From: a virus
Lineage: Duplodnaviria > Heunggongvirae > Uroviricota > Caudoviricetes
Virus record (IMG/VR): IMGVR_UViG_2537562091_000006
DNA: 8,027 nt
Reading direction: 5' to 3' (one strand)
The position numbers and the translations under genes are program-made. The notes beneath the pieces were generated by a model. That model did not search any database. It saw only the letters and a program-made list of their open reading frames with translations, and was not told the DNA's origin. Every line of letters begins with the position of its first letter. Position 1 is the first letter of the stretch. Shown in pieces: positions 1 to 8,027 of the stretch.

Positions 1-144
1 TTAATTTCGATTATTTTTCCCGGATGGAAAATTCTTAGAAACCGATCACATACAGCTGCATTTATTAAGGTTATCATCCGTTTCGCTGAAAAACATAACC
101 CATAAAATGCTAGCTGTACCAGGAACCACCTCCTTAGCCTGTGT

Positions 145-171
145 AATCTCCCTTACACGGGCTTATTTTTT
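145..171. other. Phage attachment-site core, P2 type (attP or prophage att junction)
   Basis: Plus strand reads AATCTCCCTTACACGGGCTTATTTTTT; its reverse complement AAAAAATAAGCCCGTGTAAGGGAGATT matches the 27-nt P2 att core as I remember it. Position immediately beyond ogr fits P2 organisation (ogr-att). Recalled from memory, not searched. Confidence 0.55.
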
Positions 172-235
172 ACGCGTAATACAATGAAATAAAAGGATTT
201 ATTTCTGGTCACGTCCACACATTGACCACATCGAC

Positions 236-259
236 AAAAAAGCCCCTCGACTGAGGGGC
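236..259 (-). terminator. Rho-independent terminator downstream of ogr
   Basis: Minus strand reads GCCCCTC-AGTC-GAGGGGC followed by TTTTTT (stem 242-248 / 253-259, T-tract 236-241), starting 14 nt after the ogr stop codon. On the plus strand no U-tract follows the stem, so it acts on the minus strand. Confidence 0.7.
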
Positions 260-272
260 TTCCTGTTTGTAA

Positions 273-491
273 TTACATCCACATAATTTGCTGCCCTGAC
301 GGCAACGGGTGCGGTCTAACGGCGTGGACTTCTCCCGGCTTCACGATGTATCGCTGTACCGACTCATAAGTGATGAACGTGGCGCTGCAATTCACGTTCT
401 GACACTGGTGATAACGCTCTTTTGTCGTGTCAGTGATATAGCGACTTGTACGCGCATGTGCGGCATGCTGGCATAAAGGACAATGAAACAT
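273..491 (-). CDS. ogr: Ogr late transcription activator, zinc-finger protein (72 aa)
   Basis: Translation MFHCPLCQHAAHARTSRYITDTTKERYHQCQNVNCSATF... has the Cys4 motif C-x2-C-x22-C-x4-C and the 72-aa length of P2 Ogr. Start chosen at the internal Met (codon 45 of the 116-aa track ORF) because GGAAGAGG lies about 8 nt upstream and the longer ORF would overlap D by 50 nt. Confidence 0.85.
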   Translation of the reverse strand: MFHCPLCQHAAHARTSRYITDTTKERYHQCQNVNCSATFITYESVQRYIVKPGEVHAVRPHPLPSGQQIMWM

Positions 492-525
492 CGCGAGCAC
501 CTCTTCCGGTTTTGTTGATGGTGCC

Positions 526-554
526 ATTTTAGTTAATTTATCCTTATAAAACAA
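526..554 (-). promoter_or_regulatory. Putative sigma70 promoter for ogr
   Basis: Minus strand TTGTTT (549-554) - 17 nt - TAAAAT (526-531) in the AT-rich 82-bp D-ogr gap, about 35 nt upstream of the ogr ATG. Prediction by eye only. Confidence 0.3.
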
Positions 555-573
555 ACAGATAAAATAAAACAGA

Positions 574-1737
574 TCACTCATTATCTTCTGTTTCGTACTC
601 CACATCAGAAAGCCTGACCTCAAGCTCTAAGGACGTCGTGAAGCCGCTATTATTCAGAAAATGTGTCACCTTAGTGATTGTCCAGTTCTGCTCGTCTATG
701 ACGCGCTTAAAGCCTGACACTTTGACCGGCGTTTCCGTGTAAATATCTGCACGACCGGTAGCCAGGATGATGGAGAACTCCGCAACGCCCCGTTGCAGTT
801 TATCCCACTTCGCCTGAGCGGCGCGCATGGCCTGCGCTTTTGTGGCATATACCGTAGTCAGGGCAAAAACGTTGTCAGCTTCACCGGCCATGTATTCACC
901 TTCGCGCGCTTCAGGTACTTTTGGCGCTTTCTTCTGCGTGACTGGTTTTGCTTTCGGGTGCTCCAGTGCACGCAGGTGTTTTTCTTTCTTTTTGCGTTTC
1001 AGTTTTACCTTCTGCTTTTGTGGTTTCGGGTCTTTGGTGTGTAACCACTTTGCCGTTACGCCGGTATAGGCTCCACGGTCAGCAATCGCAAAATGATGAC
1101 GGTCGCCGTCGCTGCGGGTGATGGTAATCTGCGGGATTTTTTTACCGCTGGCCGTCACCCCCTGCCCCGCTTTGAGAAACAGCAGTTTTCCCATTTTTAC
1201 CGACACCTCGCCGCCGTTGCGTTCAGCAAGACGGGTCAGGAATTTCAAATCGGACTCCTGCGACTGGTCGATGTGCGGGATTTTAATTCCGGCCAGTGAC
1301 GGAGCGACACTGGCTTCCAGCTTATTACGGGAGGCTATCGCCTCAACAATCGCACCGAGCGTGGTGTCATGCCATGAGCCTTCACGGCGGGAATTGAGCG
1401 TCCCGCGAAAATCTGCACTCCGGGCGCGGATGGTGACCACATCCGGTGCGCCCCGGTGTTCAACCTCATCAACGGTAAATTTCCCTTTGCATACCAGGGC
1501 AAAACCTTTCCAGCCGATATACACCGTCAGGACAGCGCCACGAACCGGCAGCCCGACCTGCCCGTCGGCATCGTTCAGTTCAATATCAAGCTGGTCAGCC
1601 TCAAAGCCCCGGTTATCCGTCAGGGTCATGCTCATCAGACGGTCGCTGATATTGCCGGTAATATCCCTGCTGTCGAGCATCAGCATGTAATCCGGCGTCA
1701 GCGTACTGCCTGCATCAAATGTCAGCGCATCCAGCAT
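574..1737 (-). CDS. D: Tail protein D (phage late control D family, 387 aa)
   Basis: 387-aa ORF in the position and with the length of P2 gpD, between U and ogr. Start ATG overlaps the U stop (TAATG). Contains a Lys-rich low-complexity stretch at residues ~235-278. Confidence 0.85.
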   Translation of the reverse strand: MLDALTFDAGSTLTPDYMLMLDSRDITGNISDRLMSMTLTDNRGFEADQLDIELNDADGQVGLPVRGAVLTVYIGWKGFALVCKGKFTVDEVEHRGAPDVVTIRARSADFRGTLNSRREGSWHDTTLGAIVEAIASRNKLEASVAPSLAGIKIPHIDQSQESDLKFLTRLAERNGGEVSVKMGKLLFLKAGQGVTASGKKIPQITITRSDGDRHHFAIADRGAYTGVTAKWLHTKDPKPQKQKVKLKRKKKEKHLRALEHPKAKPVTQKKAPKVPEAREGEYMAGEADNVFALTTVYATKAQAMRAAQAKWDKLQRGVAEFSIILATGRADIYTETPVKVSGFKRVIDEQNWTITKVTHFLNNSGFTTSLELEVRLSDVEYETEDNE

Positions 1738-2216
1738 TATCCCGCCTCCGTCATACCCGTGAATCTGGTCGCCATACTGCCAGCCTTACCGATGAGCGAC
1801 TCCGCCTGTTTACCGATATCGCCATAAAGCGCGGCCAGTGATTCATCCACGCGGGTGAGCGACAGCGTAAAATCAATTTTCCGGGGTGTGCCGTCTGCAA
1901 AGAAAATACTCCCTGTTTCACTCACCCTGCTGATGACATACATGCCGTAAATCATGCCGGAGCCATCCAGCAACGGCCACGCCCGGCCTTCCTCTGCCAT
2001 CAGTCTGAGCGTGGTCATCGTCAGCTTGCCGCCGGTCAGTTCGGGATAAAGCACACCGGCAAGCGTGATGTTTTCCTCGCCAACACCGAGAAACTGAAAG
2101 GCATCCCGTTTACCGATACGGGAATTTGACGGCCAGCGATAATCTGATTCACGCTGCATGGTCTGGTGTGGCAGCGTCTGGCGCATAAAAACAAACATAC
2201 CTAACGCGAGCATCAT
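1737..2216 (-). CDS. U: Tail protein U (159 aa)
   Basis: 159-aa ORF matching P2 gpU in length and position. AAGGAGGTG Shine-Dalgarno sits just upstream of the start at 2216. Stop overlaps the D start. Confidence 0.85.
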   Translation of the reverse strand: MMLALGMFVFMRQTLPHQTMQRESDYRWPSNSRIGKRDAFQFLGVGEENITLAGVLYPELTGGKLTMTTLRLMAEEGRAWPLLDGSGMIYGMYVISRVSETGSIFFADGTPRKIDFTLSLTRVDESLAALYGDIGKQAESLIGKAGSMATRFTGMTEAG

Positions 2217-2230
2217 TTTTCGTCACCTCC

Positions 2231-4678
2231 TTAACCGTCATGCATCATGCTGGCACGGGCGCGCGCACGTTTATCCCGCTCGTATTTTTCGAGCGCATCC
2301 TGTAACTGGCGGTCAAGCTGTGTCCCCGGCGCAGTACCACCCGTCAGGCTGATGTGATATTCGTTTTTACTCTGGTCCACATAAGAGCGGCCAGCCGGTG
2401 CCGTGACCGGCTGATAAGCCTGATAGCCTGCATAAGAGCTGGTCGCCGGAATATAACCACCGGTGCCATACGTGGCGGCATGAGTTCTGGCGGCGGTCTG
2501 GTCAAGTGTGTCTGACTCTTTGTTGATGACCCCGAGCTTTTCCAGTACCCAGTCAATACCGCTGCGCAGTTTGTTGAACGCATTAAGCGGCAGCATCAGC
2601 GCGTCAGCCAGTGCCTGCCCGAACATGACGCCCGTGTCACGGCAACGGTTCAGGGTGTCCTGTGTGGCTTTGACCGGGGCAATCAGGTTTTTAAACCACT
2701 GCCACGCGGCCTGTAACTTTTCGCCCAGCCAGTCAAACACCGGTTTCAGTGGCGTGAACAGCTCCCCCACCGGCGCAAATGCCGCTTTCAGCCCTTCCAC
2801 CACACCGCCAAAGAATGCGCTGACAGGCTCCCAGTATTTACGGATAAGCAACGCCCCGGCGACAATGGCGGCCACCACGGCCACAACCGGCCAGCTAATC
2901 GCCCCGATGGCCGTCATAACAGCACTGCCAACCGTCATGAAGATTGCCCCCATTGCGCCTGCTGCCGCGATAATGGCATTAATGCCGGTGATAACCGGCC
3001 ATGCTACAAGACCAATGGCACCGATGATGCCAATAAGCGCCAGCGCGCCACCGACAATGAGGCCGATGGTTGACGCCAGTGATTTGTTTTTCTGGATCCA
3101 GCCGTCGAGTTTTAACACATACTTTGTGGCCGTCTGAGTGAGTTTACGCAGTGCGCCTTCCTGCTGGTCAAACAGGTCTGTCCCCACCGCCTCATAAGCG
3201 GACTGAAACTCCTTAAAGTCACCGCCGAGGTTGTCCTGCATGATATTTACCAGCTCGGCGGTCTTCCCGTCTGAGGCTTTAAACGCAGCGGTCAGTTTGT
3301 CCAGCTTTCCGGTTGAGGCGGCAGTCATCAGCACGGCGGCGGCTGAGCTGGCCTCCTCCCCGAAAATGGTTTTCATGTATTCAGCCTGCTGGGCAGTACC
3401 GAGCCGATTTTTCTCAAAACTGGCCTGCATTTCTTTCAGAATGGTAAATATTGGTCGGGTGTTTCCCTTGCTGTCTGAGGTTTTCACACCAAGCTCTTTC
3501 AGTGCATCCCATGCTTTTCCCGTCGGTGCCTGCAGGCGGCTTAACACGGCACGGCTTCCCGTCCCCGCCATTGAACCGGTAATTTTTGCATCATGCAGCG
3601 CCCCGACCATTGCGGCGGTTTCTTCAATGCTGACACCGGCATTTTTTGCCACAGGTGCGGCATAGGTCAGCGCATCGCTCATGCCGTCAAAATCGGCGGC
3701 GGTTTTGTTCATCGTCATGGAGAGAACATCCCCGATATGAGCGACCTTATCGTTTGAAAGCTGAAAGGCGGATTTCATCCCCATCAACAGGGCGGCGTTT
3801 TCTTCCATCGTGCGACGGTTCGCCAGCGCCATATTCAGCGTGACCGGCGTTGCCGCCTGAATGGCATCAACATCCCCACCGGCTTTCGCAATGATAATCT
3901 GCGCACCGGCTGCATCATCCGCCGAGGCGGCGGTGTTGTCGCCGAGCTGGCGCGCCTGTTTGCGTAATGCGGCCATTTCGGCGGAGTCTTTTGCCGCACC
4001 GAGCACAGCCTGCAATTCTGAGTTTTTCTGCGCAAACTCATAACCGGGCATCAGCAGCTTAACTCCGGCCATCGTTCCCGCAGCAGCTATCCCCACACCG
4101 GCAGCGCCCACTGAGGCCATATTTCCGGCCAGTTCCTTTCCGGCCTGATAACGCTGTTTTACTGCGTTAAGTTTTGCCTGTTGTGCACTGACACGCGCCA
4201 GTGCGTCACGCTGACGGTTAAGCTGTGCGGTGGTTTCACTGATACGGTTTTTCAGTCCCTGCTCATCATGTGCAAGATTGCGGGTATTAATTCCCACAGC
4301 GGCCAGTTCCCGCTGCTGGCGTTTAACGGAGTCCGTCAGGCGGTTATATTTCGCCTGTAAGTCCTCCGCCGCACGCTTTGCGGATTCCAGCACTTTCGCC
4401 TGAGCACGGGTCGGACGTTCGGTGTTTTTAAACTGTGTGGCAAGGGCTTCGGCCTCCTGCCGTGCCTTTTCAAGTGCATGACCAGTCACGGCGAGCTGTG
4501 CACTGGTCTTGCGAAATCCCTCAATACGGGATGCCTGACCGTTCAGCTCGCGCAGTGATTTTTGTGTTTCCCGGATATCCCCCGACAGCGATTTGCTCGC
4601 TGTGCGGATGGATTTAAACGGGCGGGATGCCTGGTCAACAGCCCTGAGCAATACCTGTAATTTTACATTGTTACTCAT
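2231..4678 (-). CDS. T: Tail tape measure protein T (815 aa)
   Basis: 815-aa ORF, the P2 gpT length. N-terminal ~190 residues are Q/R/A/E/L-rich (coiled-coil-like), followed by a long Gly/Ala/Ile-rich hydrophobic block (residues ~534-616). ATG at 4676-4678 overlaps the E+E' stop. Lies directly after the frameshifted chaperone pair, the typical tape-measure position. Confidence 0.9.
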   Translation of the reverse strand: MSNNVKLQVLLRAVDQASRPFKSIRTASKSLSGDIRETQKSLRELNGQASRIEGFRKTSAQLAVTGHALEKARQEAEALATQFKNTERPTRAQAKVLESAKRAAEDLQAKYNRLTDSVKRQQRELAAVGINTRNLAHDEQGLKNRISETTAQLNRQRDALARVSAQQAKLNAVKQRYQAGKELAGNMASVGAAGVGIAAAGTMAGVKLLMPGYEFAQKNSELQAVLGAAKDSAEMAALRKQARQLGDNTAASADDAAGAQIIIAKAGGDVDAIQAATPVTLNMALANRRTMEENAALLMGMKSAFQLSNDKVAHIGDVLSMTMNKTAADFDGMSDALTYAAPVAKNAGVSIEETAAMVGALHDAKITGSMAGTGSRAVLSRLQAPTGKAWDALKELGVKTSDSKGNTRPIFTILKEMQASFEKNRLGTAQQAEYMKTIFGEEASSAAAVLMTAASTGKLDKLTAAFKASDGKTAELVNIMQDNLGGDFKEFQSAYEAVGTDLFDQQEGALRKLTQTATKYVLKLDGWIQKNKSLASTIGLIVGGALALIGIIGAIGLVAWPVITGINAIIAAAGAMGAIFMTVGSAVMTAIGAISWPVVAVVAAIVAGALLIRKYWEPVSAFFGGVVEGLKAAFAPVGELFTPLKPVFDWLGEKLQAAWQWFKNLIAPVKATQDTLNRCRDTGVMFGQALADALMLPLNAFNKLRSGIDWVLEKLGVINKESDTLDQTAARTHAATYGTGGYIPATSSYAGYQAYQPVTAPAGRSYVDQSKNEYHISLTGGTAPGTQLDRQLQDALEKYERDKRARARASMMHDG

Positions 4679-5098
4679 TCGTGTTTCCGCTTCGCCGGAG
4701 CGCCTTTTCGCGCCATGTGATGAGTTCGGTCAGGCTCATGGGATACAGTTCTGATGGCGGCCAGTGAAATATCACTGCCACATCCGCCATCAGGTCATCG
4801 ACCGAGAGATTTTTCGGAAACGTCACTGCACCGAGTTCGGCGACAAAAAACCGACCACCTTACCGGCCAGCGCCACAAGGTCAGGCAGTTCCAGTGCGGC
4901 GACTTCCTGCTCGGTCAGCATCGGTGCAGTCATGCGCGGCAGCACCTTAATCAGTGCATCGACTTCGGAGTTCGCGACCGCAGCCAGACTGACACCGCGC
5001 AGCGTCCCGGCGTTAGGTTTCATCAGCGTGACCTGTTCGATAACCTGCTCACCACGTTTGACCGGATTGTCCAGGGTAATGACGTTTTCTTTGTTCAT
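4671..5098 (-). CDS. Tail assembly chaperone E+E' (142 aa, made by -1 programmed frameshift at 4844-4850)
   Basis: After a -1 shift on T TTT TTG the minus strand reads ...VAELGAVTFPKNLSVDDLMADVAVIFHWPPSELYPMSLTELITWREKALRRSGNTNE* with stop TAA at 4671-4673, overlapping the T start. 85 + 57 = 142 aa, the P2 E+E' length. The -1 frame is open for exactly this stretch. Confidence 0.8.
4823..5098 (-). CDS. E: Tail assembly chaperone E (91 aa, zero-frame product)
   Basis: 91-aa ORF ending ...AGKVVGFLSPNSVQ*, located between FII and T as in P2. Contains the slippery heptamer near its 3' end. Confidence 0.85.
   Translation of the reverse strand: MNKENVITLDNPVKRGEQVIEQVTLMKPNAGTLRGVSLAAVANSEVDALIKVLPRMTAPMLTEQEVAALELPDLVALAGKVVGFLSPNSVQ
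4844..4850 (-). other. -1 programmed ribosomal frameshift slippery heptamer (T TTT TTG)
   Basis: Minus strand GGT TTT TTG in the E zero frame (plus strand CAAAAAA at 4844-4850), 8 codons before the E stop. It is exactly where the E' reading frame opens. Confidence 0.8.
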
Positions 5099-5126
5099 GG
5101 TTTTCTCACTTCTGAATCGGGGTTAA

Positions 5127-5147
5127 CCGGTCAGCCAGGCTGACCGG
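5127..5147 (-). promoter_or_regulatory. GC-rich perfect hairpin in the FII-E intergenic region (possible attenuator or mRNA processing/stability element)
   Basis: CCGGTCAGCC-A-GGCTGACCGG is a perfect 10-bp inverted repeat in the 56-bp gap between the FII stop (5155) and the E start (5098). No U-tract follows on the transcribed strand, so it is not a canonical intrinsic terminator. Confidence 0.4.
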
Positions 5148-5154
5148 ATGAAAA

Positions 5155-5673
5155 TCACAGGCCGATATTGCGGCGGTGTTGCTCCAGCCGGTCGACGCCG
5201 TTCACCTTCTCAATCATGTTGATGGTGTCAATTTCGACCAGCTCCTTACCGTCCATCGTCAGCCGGAAATAGGTGCAGACCACGGAGATTTTCGACTCGG
5301 TGTCTTCTCCCTGTTTACCCTCGCCGGTGTCGATTTCTTTCTGACGTCCACGCATGACCACCTCGACGGCCACCGTTTCGCCGGTATCGTCACGCTGGTA
5401 AGAGCCTGCAAAACGAATCGGTACGGCATCCACACCGGTTGCGGCGTAAAGTTCCCAGATAACCGAATCCGGGAAGCCCCCGAGCGACCACTCCATTGAC
5501 AGCGCATCGTCATCAAGGCCGAGGTCTACCGGTGCGCTGCCGTTCATCCCCGCACCGCGATAGTTTTCGAGCTTACGGGTCAGTTTTGGCAGCGTGACGG
5601 ACTTTGCAACGCCCTGATAGCTGTAGCCGTTCAGAAAGACGTTCATTAACTTGAGTTTGCGCGGCATTGCCAT
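5155..5673 (-). CDS. FII: Tail tube protein FII (172 aa)
   Basis: 172-aa ORF directly downstream of the sheath gene, with the P2 gpFII length. AAGGAG Shine-Dalgarno precedes the ATG at 5673. Confidence 0.85.
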   Translation of the reverse strand: MAMPRKLKLMNVFLNGYSYQGVAKSVTLPKLTRKLENYRGAGMNGSAPVDLGLDDDALSMEWSLGGFPDSVIWELYAATGVDAVPIRFAGSYQRDDTGETVAVEVVMRGRQKEIDTGEGKQGEDTESKISVVCTYFRLTMDGKELVEIDTINMIEKVNGVDRLEQHRRNIGL

Positions 5674-5685
5674 CGGTCAGGCTCC

Positions 5686-6876
5686 TTAATTGCTGTTAAC
5701 CGAGGTGACCAGATTTGCCAGGTATTTATCGGTAATACGCTGGCGCAGGGTCAGGTTTTCAAGAGGAGGCACCGGTGTATAGTCGTAGTCGATATACAGT
5801 TTTCCGGCCTTGAGGGTTTCCGCATCGTTGGATTCTTCGCTGAACCAGCAGGTCGCATCCACGATATAGCCGTTTGTTTTCAGCTCACGGAATTTGGCAT
5901 TGATGCCGTCAACAATGTCGCGAATCAGCGTTGCGGTGATGGGCTTGTCCACCGCCCACATGTGCGCCTCAGCCATCGTGTCGGCCAGCACCTGCGCGGT
6001 GCGGGTGTAGTTTTCAAAGAGGAACAGCGGGTCATCAGAGCAGGTACGGTTACCCCAGAAGCGGAAACCGTCGCGGCGAATCAGCGTTGTGACGCCTGAC
6101 TCGTTAAGCAGGTCAGCATCGGTGCCGGACTCCTGCAAATCCCAGAATACAGATGCGCTGATACCGGTAGCACCGTTTACCCCGACGTTGGACAGCGTTT
6201 TATGCCAGCCCTGCTCCTGGTCGATTTTAGCGCGCAGACCCAGCGCACGGGCAGTGGCATACGCGGTGGCGGTGGTACTGGTGACCGTATCCCATGCGAG
6301 GAAATCCGGCCAGATGACCATCAGCTCACGCTGGCTGAAATTCTGGCGGTAGGCTTTCACCTCGGAAATGGTCTTACAGCCCCATGCGCTGATATATCCG
6401 AAAGCGCGCAGCTTCTGACAGACGGATGCCAGTGCAACAGCCACCTCTTTGGTATCCAGTCCCGGCACACCGAGAATACGCGGTTTAACACCGGTTACCG
6501 ACTCCGCCGCCAGCAGGGCTTTCAGTCCGGTGTACTGACCGTTTTCGTCGGTGGTGCCGATGATATTGGAAACGGTCTGCGCGAGTTTCGTTTCCTCGTC
6601 ATCACCGGTGCCGTCTTCCACGCGCACGACAACGGTGACCGGTTTTGACTGGTCAGCGATGGCCTGCAACGATGCCGCCAGCGTGCCTTTTTTACCGGCC
6701 TTTGCAATTGCGCTCTGCACATTGGTAATCAGCACAGGTTTATTGAGGGGGAAGGTTTCCGCATCCGCATCGCTGGCCGTGCAGACCATGCCGACAATGG
6801 CAGTGGATACGGTGGAAATGACGCGGGTGCCGTCGTTAATCTCCAGCACCTGCACGCCGTGATGATAGTCACTCAT
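5686..6876 (-). CDS. FI: Contractile tail sheath protein FI (396 aa)
   Basis: 396-aa ORF (P2 gpFI length) at the head of the FI-FII-E-T-U-D operon. GGAG lies about 10 nt upstream of the ATG. Confidence 0.85.
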   Translation of the reverse strand: MSDYHHGVQVLEINDGTRVISTVSTAIVGMVCTASDADAETFPLNKPVLITNVQSAIAKAGKKGTLAASLQAIADQSKPVTVVVRVEDGTGDDEETKLAQTVSNIIGTTDENGQYTGLKALLAAESVTGVKPRILGVPGLDTKEVAVALASVCQKLRAFGYISAWGCKTISEVKAYRQNFSQRELMVIWPDFLAWDTVTSTTATAYATARALGLRAKIDQEQGWHKTLSNVGVNGATGISASVFWDLQESGTDADLLNESGVTTLIRRDGFRFWGNRTCSDDPLFLFENYTRTAQVLADTMAEAHMWAVDKPITATLIRDIVDGINAKFRELKTNGYIVDATCWFSEESNDAETLKAGKLYIDYDYTPVPPLENLTLRQRITDKYLANLVTSVNSN

Positions 6877-6935
6877 CCGTTTAACTCCGTGGTTAATGGG
6901 TGAGTGATATTTTCAGTTGTGCCGGAGATGTCAGG

Positions 6936-7529
6936 CTATTTGTCCCGGTTGGCTAAGGGATGACACAATTTATTTTTTGTCACGGAGGCGGGGAATTTTT
7001 TATAGAGCGTGGACAGGCCAATATCAAAAATCAGTGCCACGCGTTGACGTGATTCCCCTGCAGCCAGCAAACGCCCGGCCTGCTCCCACTCACTCGCGGT
7101 GAGTTTCGGACGTCTGCCACCAATACGACCTTTGGCTCTGGCCGCTTCCAGTCCGGCGCGTGTCCGCTCGACAATGAGTTCTCGTTCCATTTCGGCCAGG
7201 GCACCCATCACATGAAAGAAAAAACGCCCCATCGGCGTGCTGGTATCAATAGCATCCGTCAGGCTGCGAAAATTAACGCCGCGTTCGCGCAGCTCCTCAA
7301 CCAGAATGACCAGATGCCGCATACTACGCCCCAGCCGGTCCAGCTTCCAGACTACCAGTGTATCCCCCTCCGATAATGTCCTGAGCAGTTTTTTCAGTCC
7401 CGGCCTGTCGGACTTCGTGCCGCTGATTTTGTCCTCAAAAATCAGCTCACATCCTGCGCACTCCAGCGCGTTACGCTGCAATTCCGTATTCTGGTCATTT
7501 GTTGACACGCGTACATAGCCAATAAGCAT
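6936..7529 (-). CDS. Serine DNA invertase, Hin/Gin/Cin/Pin family (site-specific recombinase, resolvase/invertase fold)
   Basis: N-terminus MLIGYVRVSTNDQNTELQRNAL carries the catalytic-Ser motif, followed by DTLVVWKLDRLGRS, MGRFFFHVMGALAEMERELIVERT and a C-terminal HTH (GLSTLYKKF); about 197 aa. Strong resemblance to Hin/Gin. Start taken at the second ATG (7529), which has GGGGG about 6 nt upstream; the track ORF starts 2 codons earlier at 7535. Confidence 0.85.
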   Translation of the reverse strand: MLIGYVRVSTNDQNTELQRNALECAGCELIFEDKISGTKSDRPGLKKLLRTLSEGDTLVVWKLDRLGRSMRHLVILVEELRERGVNFRSLTDAIDTSTPMGRFFFHVMGALAEMERELIVERTRAGLEAARAKGRIGGRRPKLTASEWEQAGRLLAAGESRQRVALIFDIGLSTLYKKFPASVTKNKLCHPLANRDK

Positions 7530-7556
7530 GAGCATCCCCCTGAATAAAAACCGGAG

Positions 7557-8027
7557 ATGATGCCAGTTGCCCGTTATCTCTGCATTTTCATAAACGTTGG
7601 TTTGGGAGAAGGTTCGGCATTACCCGTTGGCGTGCCTGTTCCGTGGCCTTCCGCCACTCCGCCAACAGGCTGGCTGAAATGCAACGGGGCGGCTTTTTCT
7701 GCTGAAGAATACCCGGAACTGGCAAAGGTTTACCCGACAAATAAATTGCCTGATTTACGCGGTGAGTTTATTAGGGGCTGGGATGACGGGCGTGGTATTG
7801 ATGCTGTACGTGCCTTGCTAAGTCTTCAGAATGGAGGAGTGGAATCACACACCCACCAAGGGCAGCTCTTCAGAGTTAGTGATTATCGTACAAAAGAATA
7901 CCAGCATCAGAAGTTATGGGGAAGAGGATATATTGCAAGCCTGACGCCGGGTGCTGATAGCCCACTTGATTTTGATGATTATTCTGTATCTTCTAATCCA
8001 AATGATATTTTGTCGGAATCAGAGTAA
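7557..8027 (+). CDS. Tail-fibre C-terminal variable segment (Sv'-like alternative exon of an invertible segment), probably silent in this orientation
   Basis: Translation contains LPVGVPVPWPSATPPTGWLKCNGAAFSAEEYPELAKVYP...PDLRGEFIRGWDDGRGIDAVRALLSLQNGGVESHTHQ, the conserved junction motif of Mu S / P1 S / lambda Stf-type tail-fibre C-terminal domains. The crossover site sits within its first codons, it has no convincing RBS, and it is on the strand opposite the late genes. The annotated ATG at 7557 is probably not a true start. Confidence 0.65.
   Translation: MMPVARYLCIFINVGLGEGSALPVGVPVPWPSATPPTGWLKCNGAAFSAEEYPELAKVYPTNKLPDLRGEFIRGWDDGRGIDAVRALLSLQNGGVESHTHQGQLFRVSDYRTKEYQHQKLWGRGYIASLTPGADSPLDFDDYSVSSNPNDILSESE
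7585..7610. other. 26-bp invertase crossover site (hix/gix/cix-like)
   Basis: TTTTCATAAACG TT GGTTTGGGAGAA: two imperfect inverted 12-bp half-sites (TTnTCnnAAAC) around a central TT/AA dinucleotide. Close to the gix/hix/cix sequences as I recall them. Lies 56 bp upstream of the invertase start and inside the 5' end of the tail-fibre segment ORF. Confidence 0.7.

Follow-up and report, generated by a model that had tools for sequence, protein, structure and literature searches.

A probable silent tail-fibre tip cassette beside a Gin-like invertase in a P2-like prophage

A reading frame which opposes all the long ORFs around it, and which resembles the tip of a tail fibre, raises the question of whether it is a gene in its own right or a part of one. 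The window analyzed here, a stretch of 8,027 nucleotides, is, as judged from its gene content, the tail-gene arm (right arm) of a P2-like prophage. All its long ORFs lie on the minus strand, with the exception of the ORF at 7557-8027, which is on the plus strand and encodes 156 amino acids. Tail-gene order, gene lengths and product names agree with those of the closest complete genomes and of phage pro483; the nearest genome, that of E. coli CUPS04, is 98.4% identical over positions 6900-8024. The reading which best accounts for the observations, at a probability of about 0.9, is that the ORF is the silent alternative C-terminal cassette (Hv') of gene H, located at the invertase-proximal end of an invertible segment of the Mu G-segment type. 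The features on which this reading is based are collected in Table 1.

Table 1. Features identified within the window, with their positions, strands and supporting evidence.
Feature	Position	Strand	Evidence or remarks
ogr	273-491	-	ORF list and gene order of relatives
D	574-1737	-	ORF list and gene order of relatives
U	1737-2216	-	ORF list and gene order of relatives
T, tape measure	2231-4678	-	ORF list and gene order of relatives
E and E'	4671-5098	-	ORF list and gene order of relatives
FII, tail tube	5155-5673	-	ORF list and gene order of relatives
FI, tail sheath	5686-6876	-	ORF list and gene order of relatives
Serine DNA invertase, Gin/Cin/Pin/Hin family, 197 aa	6936-7529	-	Pfam, structure match, alignment with Gin
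Candidate recombinational enhancer (Fis-binding region)	7445-7508	-	5' coding part of the invertase gene; conserved with Mu gin
Invertase 5' flank	7536-7584	-	holds RBS GGGGGA and probable extended -10 TGgCATCAT (from 7565 to 7557)
Non-fibre leader MMPVARYLCIFINV	7557-7598	+	outside the invertible segment; 14 codons; stays beside the invertase in either orientation
26-bp gix/hix-type crossover site TTTTCATAAACG-TT-GGTTTGGGAGAA	7585-7610	.	core TT at 7597-7598; boundary of the invertible segment
Conserved proximal cassette, tail collar domain up to the SHTH motif	7599-7830	+	Pfam Collar; alignment with 2XGF
AT-rich mosaic distal cassette, presumed receptor-binding determinant	7831-8027	+	GC and homology breakpoints; carries indels and no conserved C-terminus

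The fibre-tip signature, which had been proposed for the ORF from its letters, was recovered by profile searches. Residues 25-72 (7629-7772) match the Pfam Phage Tail Collar domain (PF07484, E=2e-15), and the matches of a relative's intact cassette to long tail-fibre profiles are confined to their C-terminal ends, as for example to positions 468-638 of the 673 of phrog_523. The protein formed by fusion of the cassette to H aligns to the tip of T4 gp37 (2XGF, E=7e-17), and the alignment includes the HxH motif, in which SHTH of the cassette pairs with AHSH of gp37, and the closing strand NIAFNYIVR. The proximal part of the cassette is common to many cassette types, and homology with pro483 runs to position 7795. 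The alternative tips found in relatives are not homologous to each other, one being of the Gp53-like_C and the other of the Collar type. In these relatives there is one chaperone per tip, G' (200 aa) and G (145 aa in the translated query), both of the Caudo_TAP type. The fused form of H carries an N-terminal baseplate-attachment domain (PF12571), which is lacking in the stand-alone ORF.

The product of the adjoining gene is an invertase closely related to Gin. Its reading frame extends to 7535, two codons beyond the boundary given in Table 1, and its product matches the Pfam families Resolvase (E=2e-52) and HTH_7 (E=6e-13). In a search of solved structures the best match was Mu Gin (3UJ3, E=9e-95), to which the protein is 81% identical over 181 aa in a gap-free alignment, with conservation of the catalytic Ser9. 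Residues K46, K47 and R50, together with Q150, R153 and L154, are also present, in Gin numbering, which equals that of Hin minus one; in Hin, residues Q151, R154 and L155 and the basic residues 47, 48 and 51 are invertase-specific, contact Fis or the enhancer, and set these enzymes apart from resolvases (PMC3798978). According to the same article, which cites Kahmann 1985, the enhancer of Mu and of Hin is part of the invertase gene, at a distance of about 100 bp from a crossover site (PMC3798978). Here, the region 7445-7508, at approximately 90-150 bp from the crossover core, is strongly conserved with Mu gin, for example in GT(G/A)TCAACAAATGACCAGAATAC and GCAGGATGTGA, and is proposed by homology as a candidate enhancer. 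A conserved pair of G-N13-C motifs, candidate Fis cores of tentative exact placement, has its centres 49 bp apart both in Mu and in the window. For Hin, the spacing of the Fis cores is 48 bp.

The border of the invertible segment was identified by using positions 6900-8027 as a query. Many phages are homologous to the window only up to position 7611 (query position 712) and are unrelated beyond it, and the 26-bp crossover site reported in Table 1 ends at 7610. The gixR site of Mu, TTATCCAAAACC-TC-GGTTTACAGGAA, occupies the equivalent position relative to the invertase and agrees with the window site at 17 of 26 positions. From the end of homology and the location of the site it follows that codons 1-14 of the ORF are outside the segment, and that fibre coding starts at 7599.

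The partner site falls beyond the end of the window; in relatives the distance is about 1.8 kb. In CUPS04, the sequence past this end completes the cassette, for a total of 180 aa, and continues with G' on the plus strand and with G and H (378 aa) on the minus strand. The partner was found inside H, in inverted orientation, as TTCTCGCATACC-TT-GGTTTAAGAGCA (minus strand, L001 11513-11538); it agrees with the window site at 17 of 26 positions, and the TT core, which is the same at both sites, occupies codon positions 2-3 in each. At this level of similarity the partner was missed by an inverted-repeat finder run over the CUPS04 segment; it was located by scoring each 26-mer of the CUPS04 region, and was confirmed by the exchange of half-sites described below. 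For the genome from which the window derives, the presence of the partner site, of the constant part of H and of the chaperone genes is presumed from these 98%-identical relatives.

Recombination between the two sites of CUPS04 was predicted to generate an in-frame protein, in which ...KDVAGLLAYL is joined to GLGEGSALPVGVPVPWPS..., and such a fusion was then seen as the 442-aa H protein of E. coli JKHS016. This strain carries the prophage of CUPS04 with the segment flipped, the protein accessions of invertase, G and G' being identical in the two strains, and residues ~279-442 of its H correspond to the cassette. Exact-string searches revealed that the 12-nt half-sites are reciprocally exchanged at the TT core: in CUPS04 the invertase-side site is composed of invL-TT-cassA and the site inside H of HcL-TT-cassB, while JKHS016 has invL-TT-cassB on the invertase side and HcL-TT-cassA inside H. 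H proteins are therefore observed in two forms, of 378 aa with a Gp53-like tip and of 442 aa with a Collar tip.

A second pair is provided by SW071611 (5,209,397 bp) and SW071619 (5,209,399 bp), near-identical wastewater isolates from one source, which contain another P2-like prophage with the same distal cassette. Their flanking genes are found at equal coordinates and the segment in opposite orientations, so that one isolate has a 516-aa fused H and the other a 180-aa ORF beside the recombinase. In addition, nine metagenome contigs contain the cassette joined either to the invertase flank or to one of at least three different fibre constant regions, always at a junction where ...ACCTT meets GGTTTGGGAGAAGG. 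Two sites and two cassettes were found in the relatives examined. The original prediction, according to which the ORF is expressed only after inversion, is upheld by the reciprocal exchange between CUPS04 and JKHS016, by the 442-aa fused H and by the opposite orientations in SW071611 and SW071619. Phase-variable inversions in P2-like E. coli prophages have been shown experimentally and measured in culture (PMC4272514).

The proposed mechanism follows that of known systems, in which invertase dimers bound to 26-bp sites are activated by Fis and the enhancer, cut the core, rotate by 180 degrees and religate (PMC3575834, PMC3798978). The Gin-like invertase would bind the site at 7585-7610 and the inverted partner within H, and would be activated by Fis bound to the enhancer inside its own gene, a dependence expected from the related enzymes. 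Both sites would be cut at the 2-bp TT core, and rotation and religation of the strands would flip the segment. In the orientation seen in the window, H would end in the other tip, Gp53-like in relatives, with the cassette pointing away from any promoter. Inversion would place the cassette in frame behind the constant part of H (...LAYL followed by GLGEGSALPVG...), and the late operon promoter would then transcribe the cassette and the chaperone gene G', giving fibres with a collar tip of the T4 gp37 type. By analogy with Mu, the switch most likely changes receptor specificity.

The 3' end of the ORF requires separate consideration. Compared with CUPS04, the window contains in this region four indels of 1 nt, each within a homopolymer run: after 7896, at 7918, after 8003 and after 8014. 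At these positions the intact sequence reads GAAATACC, ATGGGAAG, AATGGATA and TCGGGAAT. The frame is broken after 8003, and the terminal TAA is created by the indels; this final TAA (8025-8027) is outside every match, and was read as containing an inserted T. In intact relatives the frame remains open over a further 24 codons, to ...NETRPRNIAFNYIVRAA; the C-terminal strand which closes the domain (...N-I-A-F-N-Y-I-V-R...), present in all of them, is absent from the window. The stop at 8027 is thus probably not natural, and reflects either an artefact, due to a frameshift or to the end of the record, or a cassette that is dead. As written, the frameshifted copy could not give a functional tip, even after inversion.

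The second of these possibilities, that the cassette is a genuine pseudogene and that the indels of the last 132 bases are real mutations gathered while it was silent, is the alternative which survives best, but remains doubtful. It is favored by the fact that the indels break the frame and remove a C-terminal strand conserved from T4 gp37 to P2-like fibres, and that a silent cassette is free of selection while off; also, of the first two indels, the -1 after 7896 is offset by the +1 at 7918. Their distribution argues against it. Four homopolymer 1-nt indels are accompanied by no substitution in 7734-8024, versus one indel (the only one in 300-7895) and about 185 substitutions in the preceding 7.6 kb, and both this ratio and the clustering at the end of the sequence fit degraded base-calling rather than normal divergence.

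Furthermore, the indels were found in no other sequence. The distal part is held by 136 E. coli genomes, in its intact form, and the best 40 of the 136 are all 98.2% identical to the window; among the matches listed none reaches 99% identity, and hence no genome there shares the indels. Exact searches for the indel-bearing strings gave no match in species-representative genomes and in metagenome contigs, the intact string being present in nine of the latter, and an exact look-up of the 156-aa protein in a protein index was equally negative. Because homopolymer indels rise in density at the very end of the record without any substitutions, they are, on balance, better regarded as sequencing errors, arising where a sequence degrades as a read or record ends. 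If they were real, this copy of the cassette would be dead, and inversion would lead to a truncated, non-functional fibre, leaving the phage with one usable tip, or making the flipping an on/off switch of infectivity.

The reading as a silent cassette of H also accounts for the composition of the ORF, whose 3' half had been described as AT-richer than the tail genes. GC content is ordinary (0.539) in 7612-7830, and falls to 0.421 in 7831-8027 and to 0.324 in 7960-8027. The mean of the tail genes (574-6876) is 0.558, and their 197-nt windows all reach at least 0.472, so that the distal part lies under every tail-gene window of its length. Third codon positions differ from those of the tail genes as well: their GC content (GC3) amounts to 0.44 for the collar part and, in the intact relative, to 0.27 for the distal part, versus 0.60-0.69 in D, U, T, E, FII and FI. 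In CUPS04 the whole invertible segment has a GC content of 0.42-0.49, versus 0.56-0.58 in the neighbouring genes I and J.

Homology to other prophages stops at 7611, at 7795, or at 7822/7833, and it is at the last of these points that GC begins to fall. The distal part is contained in 138 of the 2957 E. coli records which match the 6900-8027 query, comprising invertase, site and cassette. Together with the at least three constant regions to which the cassette is found joined, these breakpoints agree with the proposal of a horizontally exchanged module, and support the view of the AT-rich distal half as the exchangeable, presumably receptor-binding module of the cassette. That the AT-richness results from amino-acid composition or chance, and not from foreign origin, is very improbable. 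The stretch is indeed short (197 nt), and the Asn, Ser, Tyr and Asp that abound in fibre tips have AT-rich codons; yet GC3, which is insensitive to protein composition, shows the same shift, no tail-gene window of equal length is so AT-rich, the drop begins at a breakpoint (7822-7833) common to many genomes, and the AT-richness extends to the entire CUPS04 segment.

Less probable still is that the ORF is a stand-alone small tail-fibre gene, translated from the ATG at 7557 or 7560 and divergent from the invertase. The ORF had been described as having no credible start and no promoter. The first statement has to be corrected in part. The ORF does open with ATGATG (7557-7562), adjoined by GGAG (7553-7556), but both ATGs lie outside the invertible segment and the leader which begins with them has no fibre counterpart. 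The same 14 codons precede the other cassette in JKHS016 (MMPVARYLCIFINV-GLRASG...), and are without counterpart in the expressed fibre of that strain, which reads ...LAYL-GLGEGSALPVG.... GGAG is separated from the two ATGs by 0 or 3 nt, far below the optimal spacing between Shine-Dalgarno sequence and start, which is roughly 5-9 nt.

The second statement holds. A scan for sigma-70-like promoters on both strands of 7300-8027 found none, and the Ogr-type motif TGT-N12-ACA is absent near the ORF, its sole match in the window (140-157) being no more than expected by chance. Neither a promoter of its own nor an RBS at a workable distance, as expected of an independent gene, was found for the ORF.

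A different origin can be proposed for the apparent start. The window, pro483, SW071619 and phage Mu all contain ATSATGCCA, as an invariant sequence equidistant from the crossover core. Its complement on the invertase strand, TGgCATSAT, resembles an extended -10 element; it precedes the RBS of the invertase by about 20 nt and is probably the -10 of the invertase promoter, although the consensus promoter scan called no site there. Read on the plus strand, the DNA of the invertase 5' flank yields both the GGAG and the ATGATG of the ORF; accordingly, the 'start' of the ORF with its GGAG is probably the invertase promoter and leader read from the wrong strand.

Annotation pipelines do favor a separate gene, as does the conservation of the ATG position from Mu to this element: NCBI calls the equivalent ORF of relatives as a 180-aa 'tail fiber protein', and GeneMark made a similar call in Mu, of an ORF starting outside the G segment. 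The conserved position is, however, better explained by the -10 element on the other strand. Moreover, no expressed fibre contains a homologue of the first 14 codons, which span the crossover site, the product would miss the whole attachment domain PF12571, and every profile match is to the C-terminus of a long protein. For Mu itself, Grundy and Howe, in a study of 1984 cited in PMC4272514, reportedly found that the G(+) orientation leaves S' and U' unexpressed, which also speaks against a separate gene here. Least probable of all is a low-level translation of the 'off' cassette from the ATSATGCCA leader, 13 codons before the core, as a baseplate-less tip, which might serve in the lysogen as a receptor-blocking or exclusion factor; it is considered since the position of the motif, constant from Mu to the P2-like element, may reflect more than an invertase promoter read backwards.

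Taken as the off-state half of H, the 156-aa (or 180-aa) 'tail fiber protein' of the annotations is not a gene. Predictions of host range from this prophage should weigh both tips, Gp53-like and Collar/gp37-like, with the last ~130 bases regarded as doubtful. Much of this is already known: invertase-driven switching of tips is a textbook case of host-range bet-hedging (Mu, P1, e14), with documented cases in P2-like prophages too, and more than 100 complete E. coli genomes already carry this cassette in annotated form. Invertible tail-fibre systems have been known for four decades, since phage Mu. The new point is the recognition of the unnatural end of the ORF at 8027.

The closest model is the G segment of Mu (Gin, gixL/gixR, S-U / S'-U'). 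In both systems the invertase, 81% identical, is transcribed away from the segment, and is followed in the same order by the crossover site, S' or Hv' reading away from it, U' or G', U or G, and Sv or Hv. In both, a 26-bp site within the fibre frame allows a constant N-terminus to take alternative C-termini, with one chaperone gene per tip; the 5' coding (candidate enhancer) region of the invertase is conserved, and an ATG-bearing leader lies outside the segment at equal distance from the core. The two differ in the phage, P2-like (Peduovirus) here, in the length of the segment (~1.8 kb here, 3 kb in Mu), in the core (TT here, TC in Mu) and in the tips, which here are of the Collar/gp37 and Gp53-like types. 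The prophage is also similar to pro483: invertase, crossover site and collar part are nearly the same in the two, at 96% identity up to 7795; the distal receptor-binding part is diverged beyond ~7800, and the copy in the window is frameshifted and truncated.

As in other P2-like prophages with invertible fibre segments, the segment is located between the tail sheath gene FI and the fibre genes H and G. The Fin system of Fels-2, a P2-like prophage of Salmonella, is an invertible tail-fibre system of this kind. E. coli EPEC E2348/69 contains two P2-like prophages with invertible tail-fibre segments (PMC4272514). The C segment of P1 (Cin), the P segment of e14 (Pin) and the Min system of p15B are based on the same family of Fis-dependent serine invertases and likewise switch fibre C-termini; in e14, inversion similarly fuses stfE to ycfK (PMC4272514). 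In p15B and in one of the EPEC prophages there are more than two crossover sites and several cassettes, versus two of each in the relatives of the window.

The cassette shares with the tip of T4 gp37 (2XGF) a collar domain, the first HxH motif and the strand which closes the domain; its needle/head part, in the middle, bears no relation to that of gp37 and is much shorter. The chaperones encoded in the relatives are of the Caudo_TAP type, that of Mu U and lambda Tfa; those of T4 gp37 are gp38 and gp57.

The start of the ORF that carries the tail-fibre tip cassette (7557-8027, + strand), which is silent in the present orientation, contains a short element (ATGATGCCA), which shows no variation and is found at a constant spacing from the crossover core in Mu, in the compared elements pro483 and SW071619, and in the window. 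Read on the strand of the Gin-type invertase gene, where it appears as TGGCATCAT, the same stretch forms an extended -10-like element, TGnCATSAT, which is probably the invertase promoter. Between the invertase start and the crossover site there is a weak hairpin that resembles a terminator and has a T run behind it (AACTGGCATCATCTCCGGTT TTTATTCAGG); it overlaps this putative -10 element, and the count of terminator-like hairpins does not exceed that of shuffled sequence.

At the opposite end of the ORF, the last 132 bases of the window contain clustered single-base indels (one at 7918, the others following 7896, 8003 and 8014) and no substitutions, and only one indel is present in the preceding 7.6 kb. 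The stop codon created by the indels, a terminal TAA that falls outside every match, is the exact end of the window. This stretch has the look of low-quality sequence from the end of a record or read.

At least two metagenome contigs bearing the cassette (L008 and L012) start at or close to the boundary of the invertible segment. Contig starts at such a boundary are the behaviour of an assembler when the sample contains both orientations. In the locus of a 98%-identical relative (L001), the convergent tail-fibre chaperone genes G' and G share 29 nt at their 3' ends, and this overlap is in the middle of the invertible segment.

Features discussed in the text; positions are those of the window unless a contig or locus is named
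Feature	Coordinates	Strand	Remark
Conserved element	7557-7565	+ (in ORF)	invariant across compared elements
Terminator-like hairpin	7549-7568	-	
L008 start	1-40 (contig)		first base 24 nt ahead of crossover half-site
L012 start	1-30 (contig)		first base within collar part
G'/G 3' overlap	10774-10802 (L001)		
Left end	1-272		AT-rich, GC 0.40
Indel-bearing 3' end	7896-8027		
E' ORF	4671-4826		
GGTTTTTTG	~4842-4850	-	immediately ahead of E stop
KDPKPQKQKVKLKRKKKEKHLRALEHPKAKPVTQKKAPKVPE	~820-1000	-	inside gene D

In CUPS04, the E. coli genome that is the nearest whole-locus relative, the prophage adjoins fieF/pfkA, and no alignment of this genome to the left end of the window was obtained. Positions 1-700 are found at 99.7% identity in other E. 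coli genomes, and some part of them is matched in 5424 of 5426 genomes. We read the left end as host flank at a common P2 remnant (ogrK) site; the attachment site of the prophage is therefore probably different from that used in CUPS04.

Among the tail genes, E is overlapped by the E' ORF in a different frame, and GGTTTTTTG resembles the slippery sequence of the programmed frameshift yielding E+E' in P2-like phages. A low-complexity, lysine-rich stretch of the gpD homologue (KDPKPQKQKVKLKRKKKEKHLRALEHPKAKPVTQKKAPKVPE) gives the 751-1200 windows a strong AT skew, with values of about -0.4 to -0.5.
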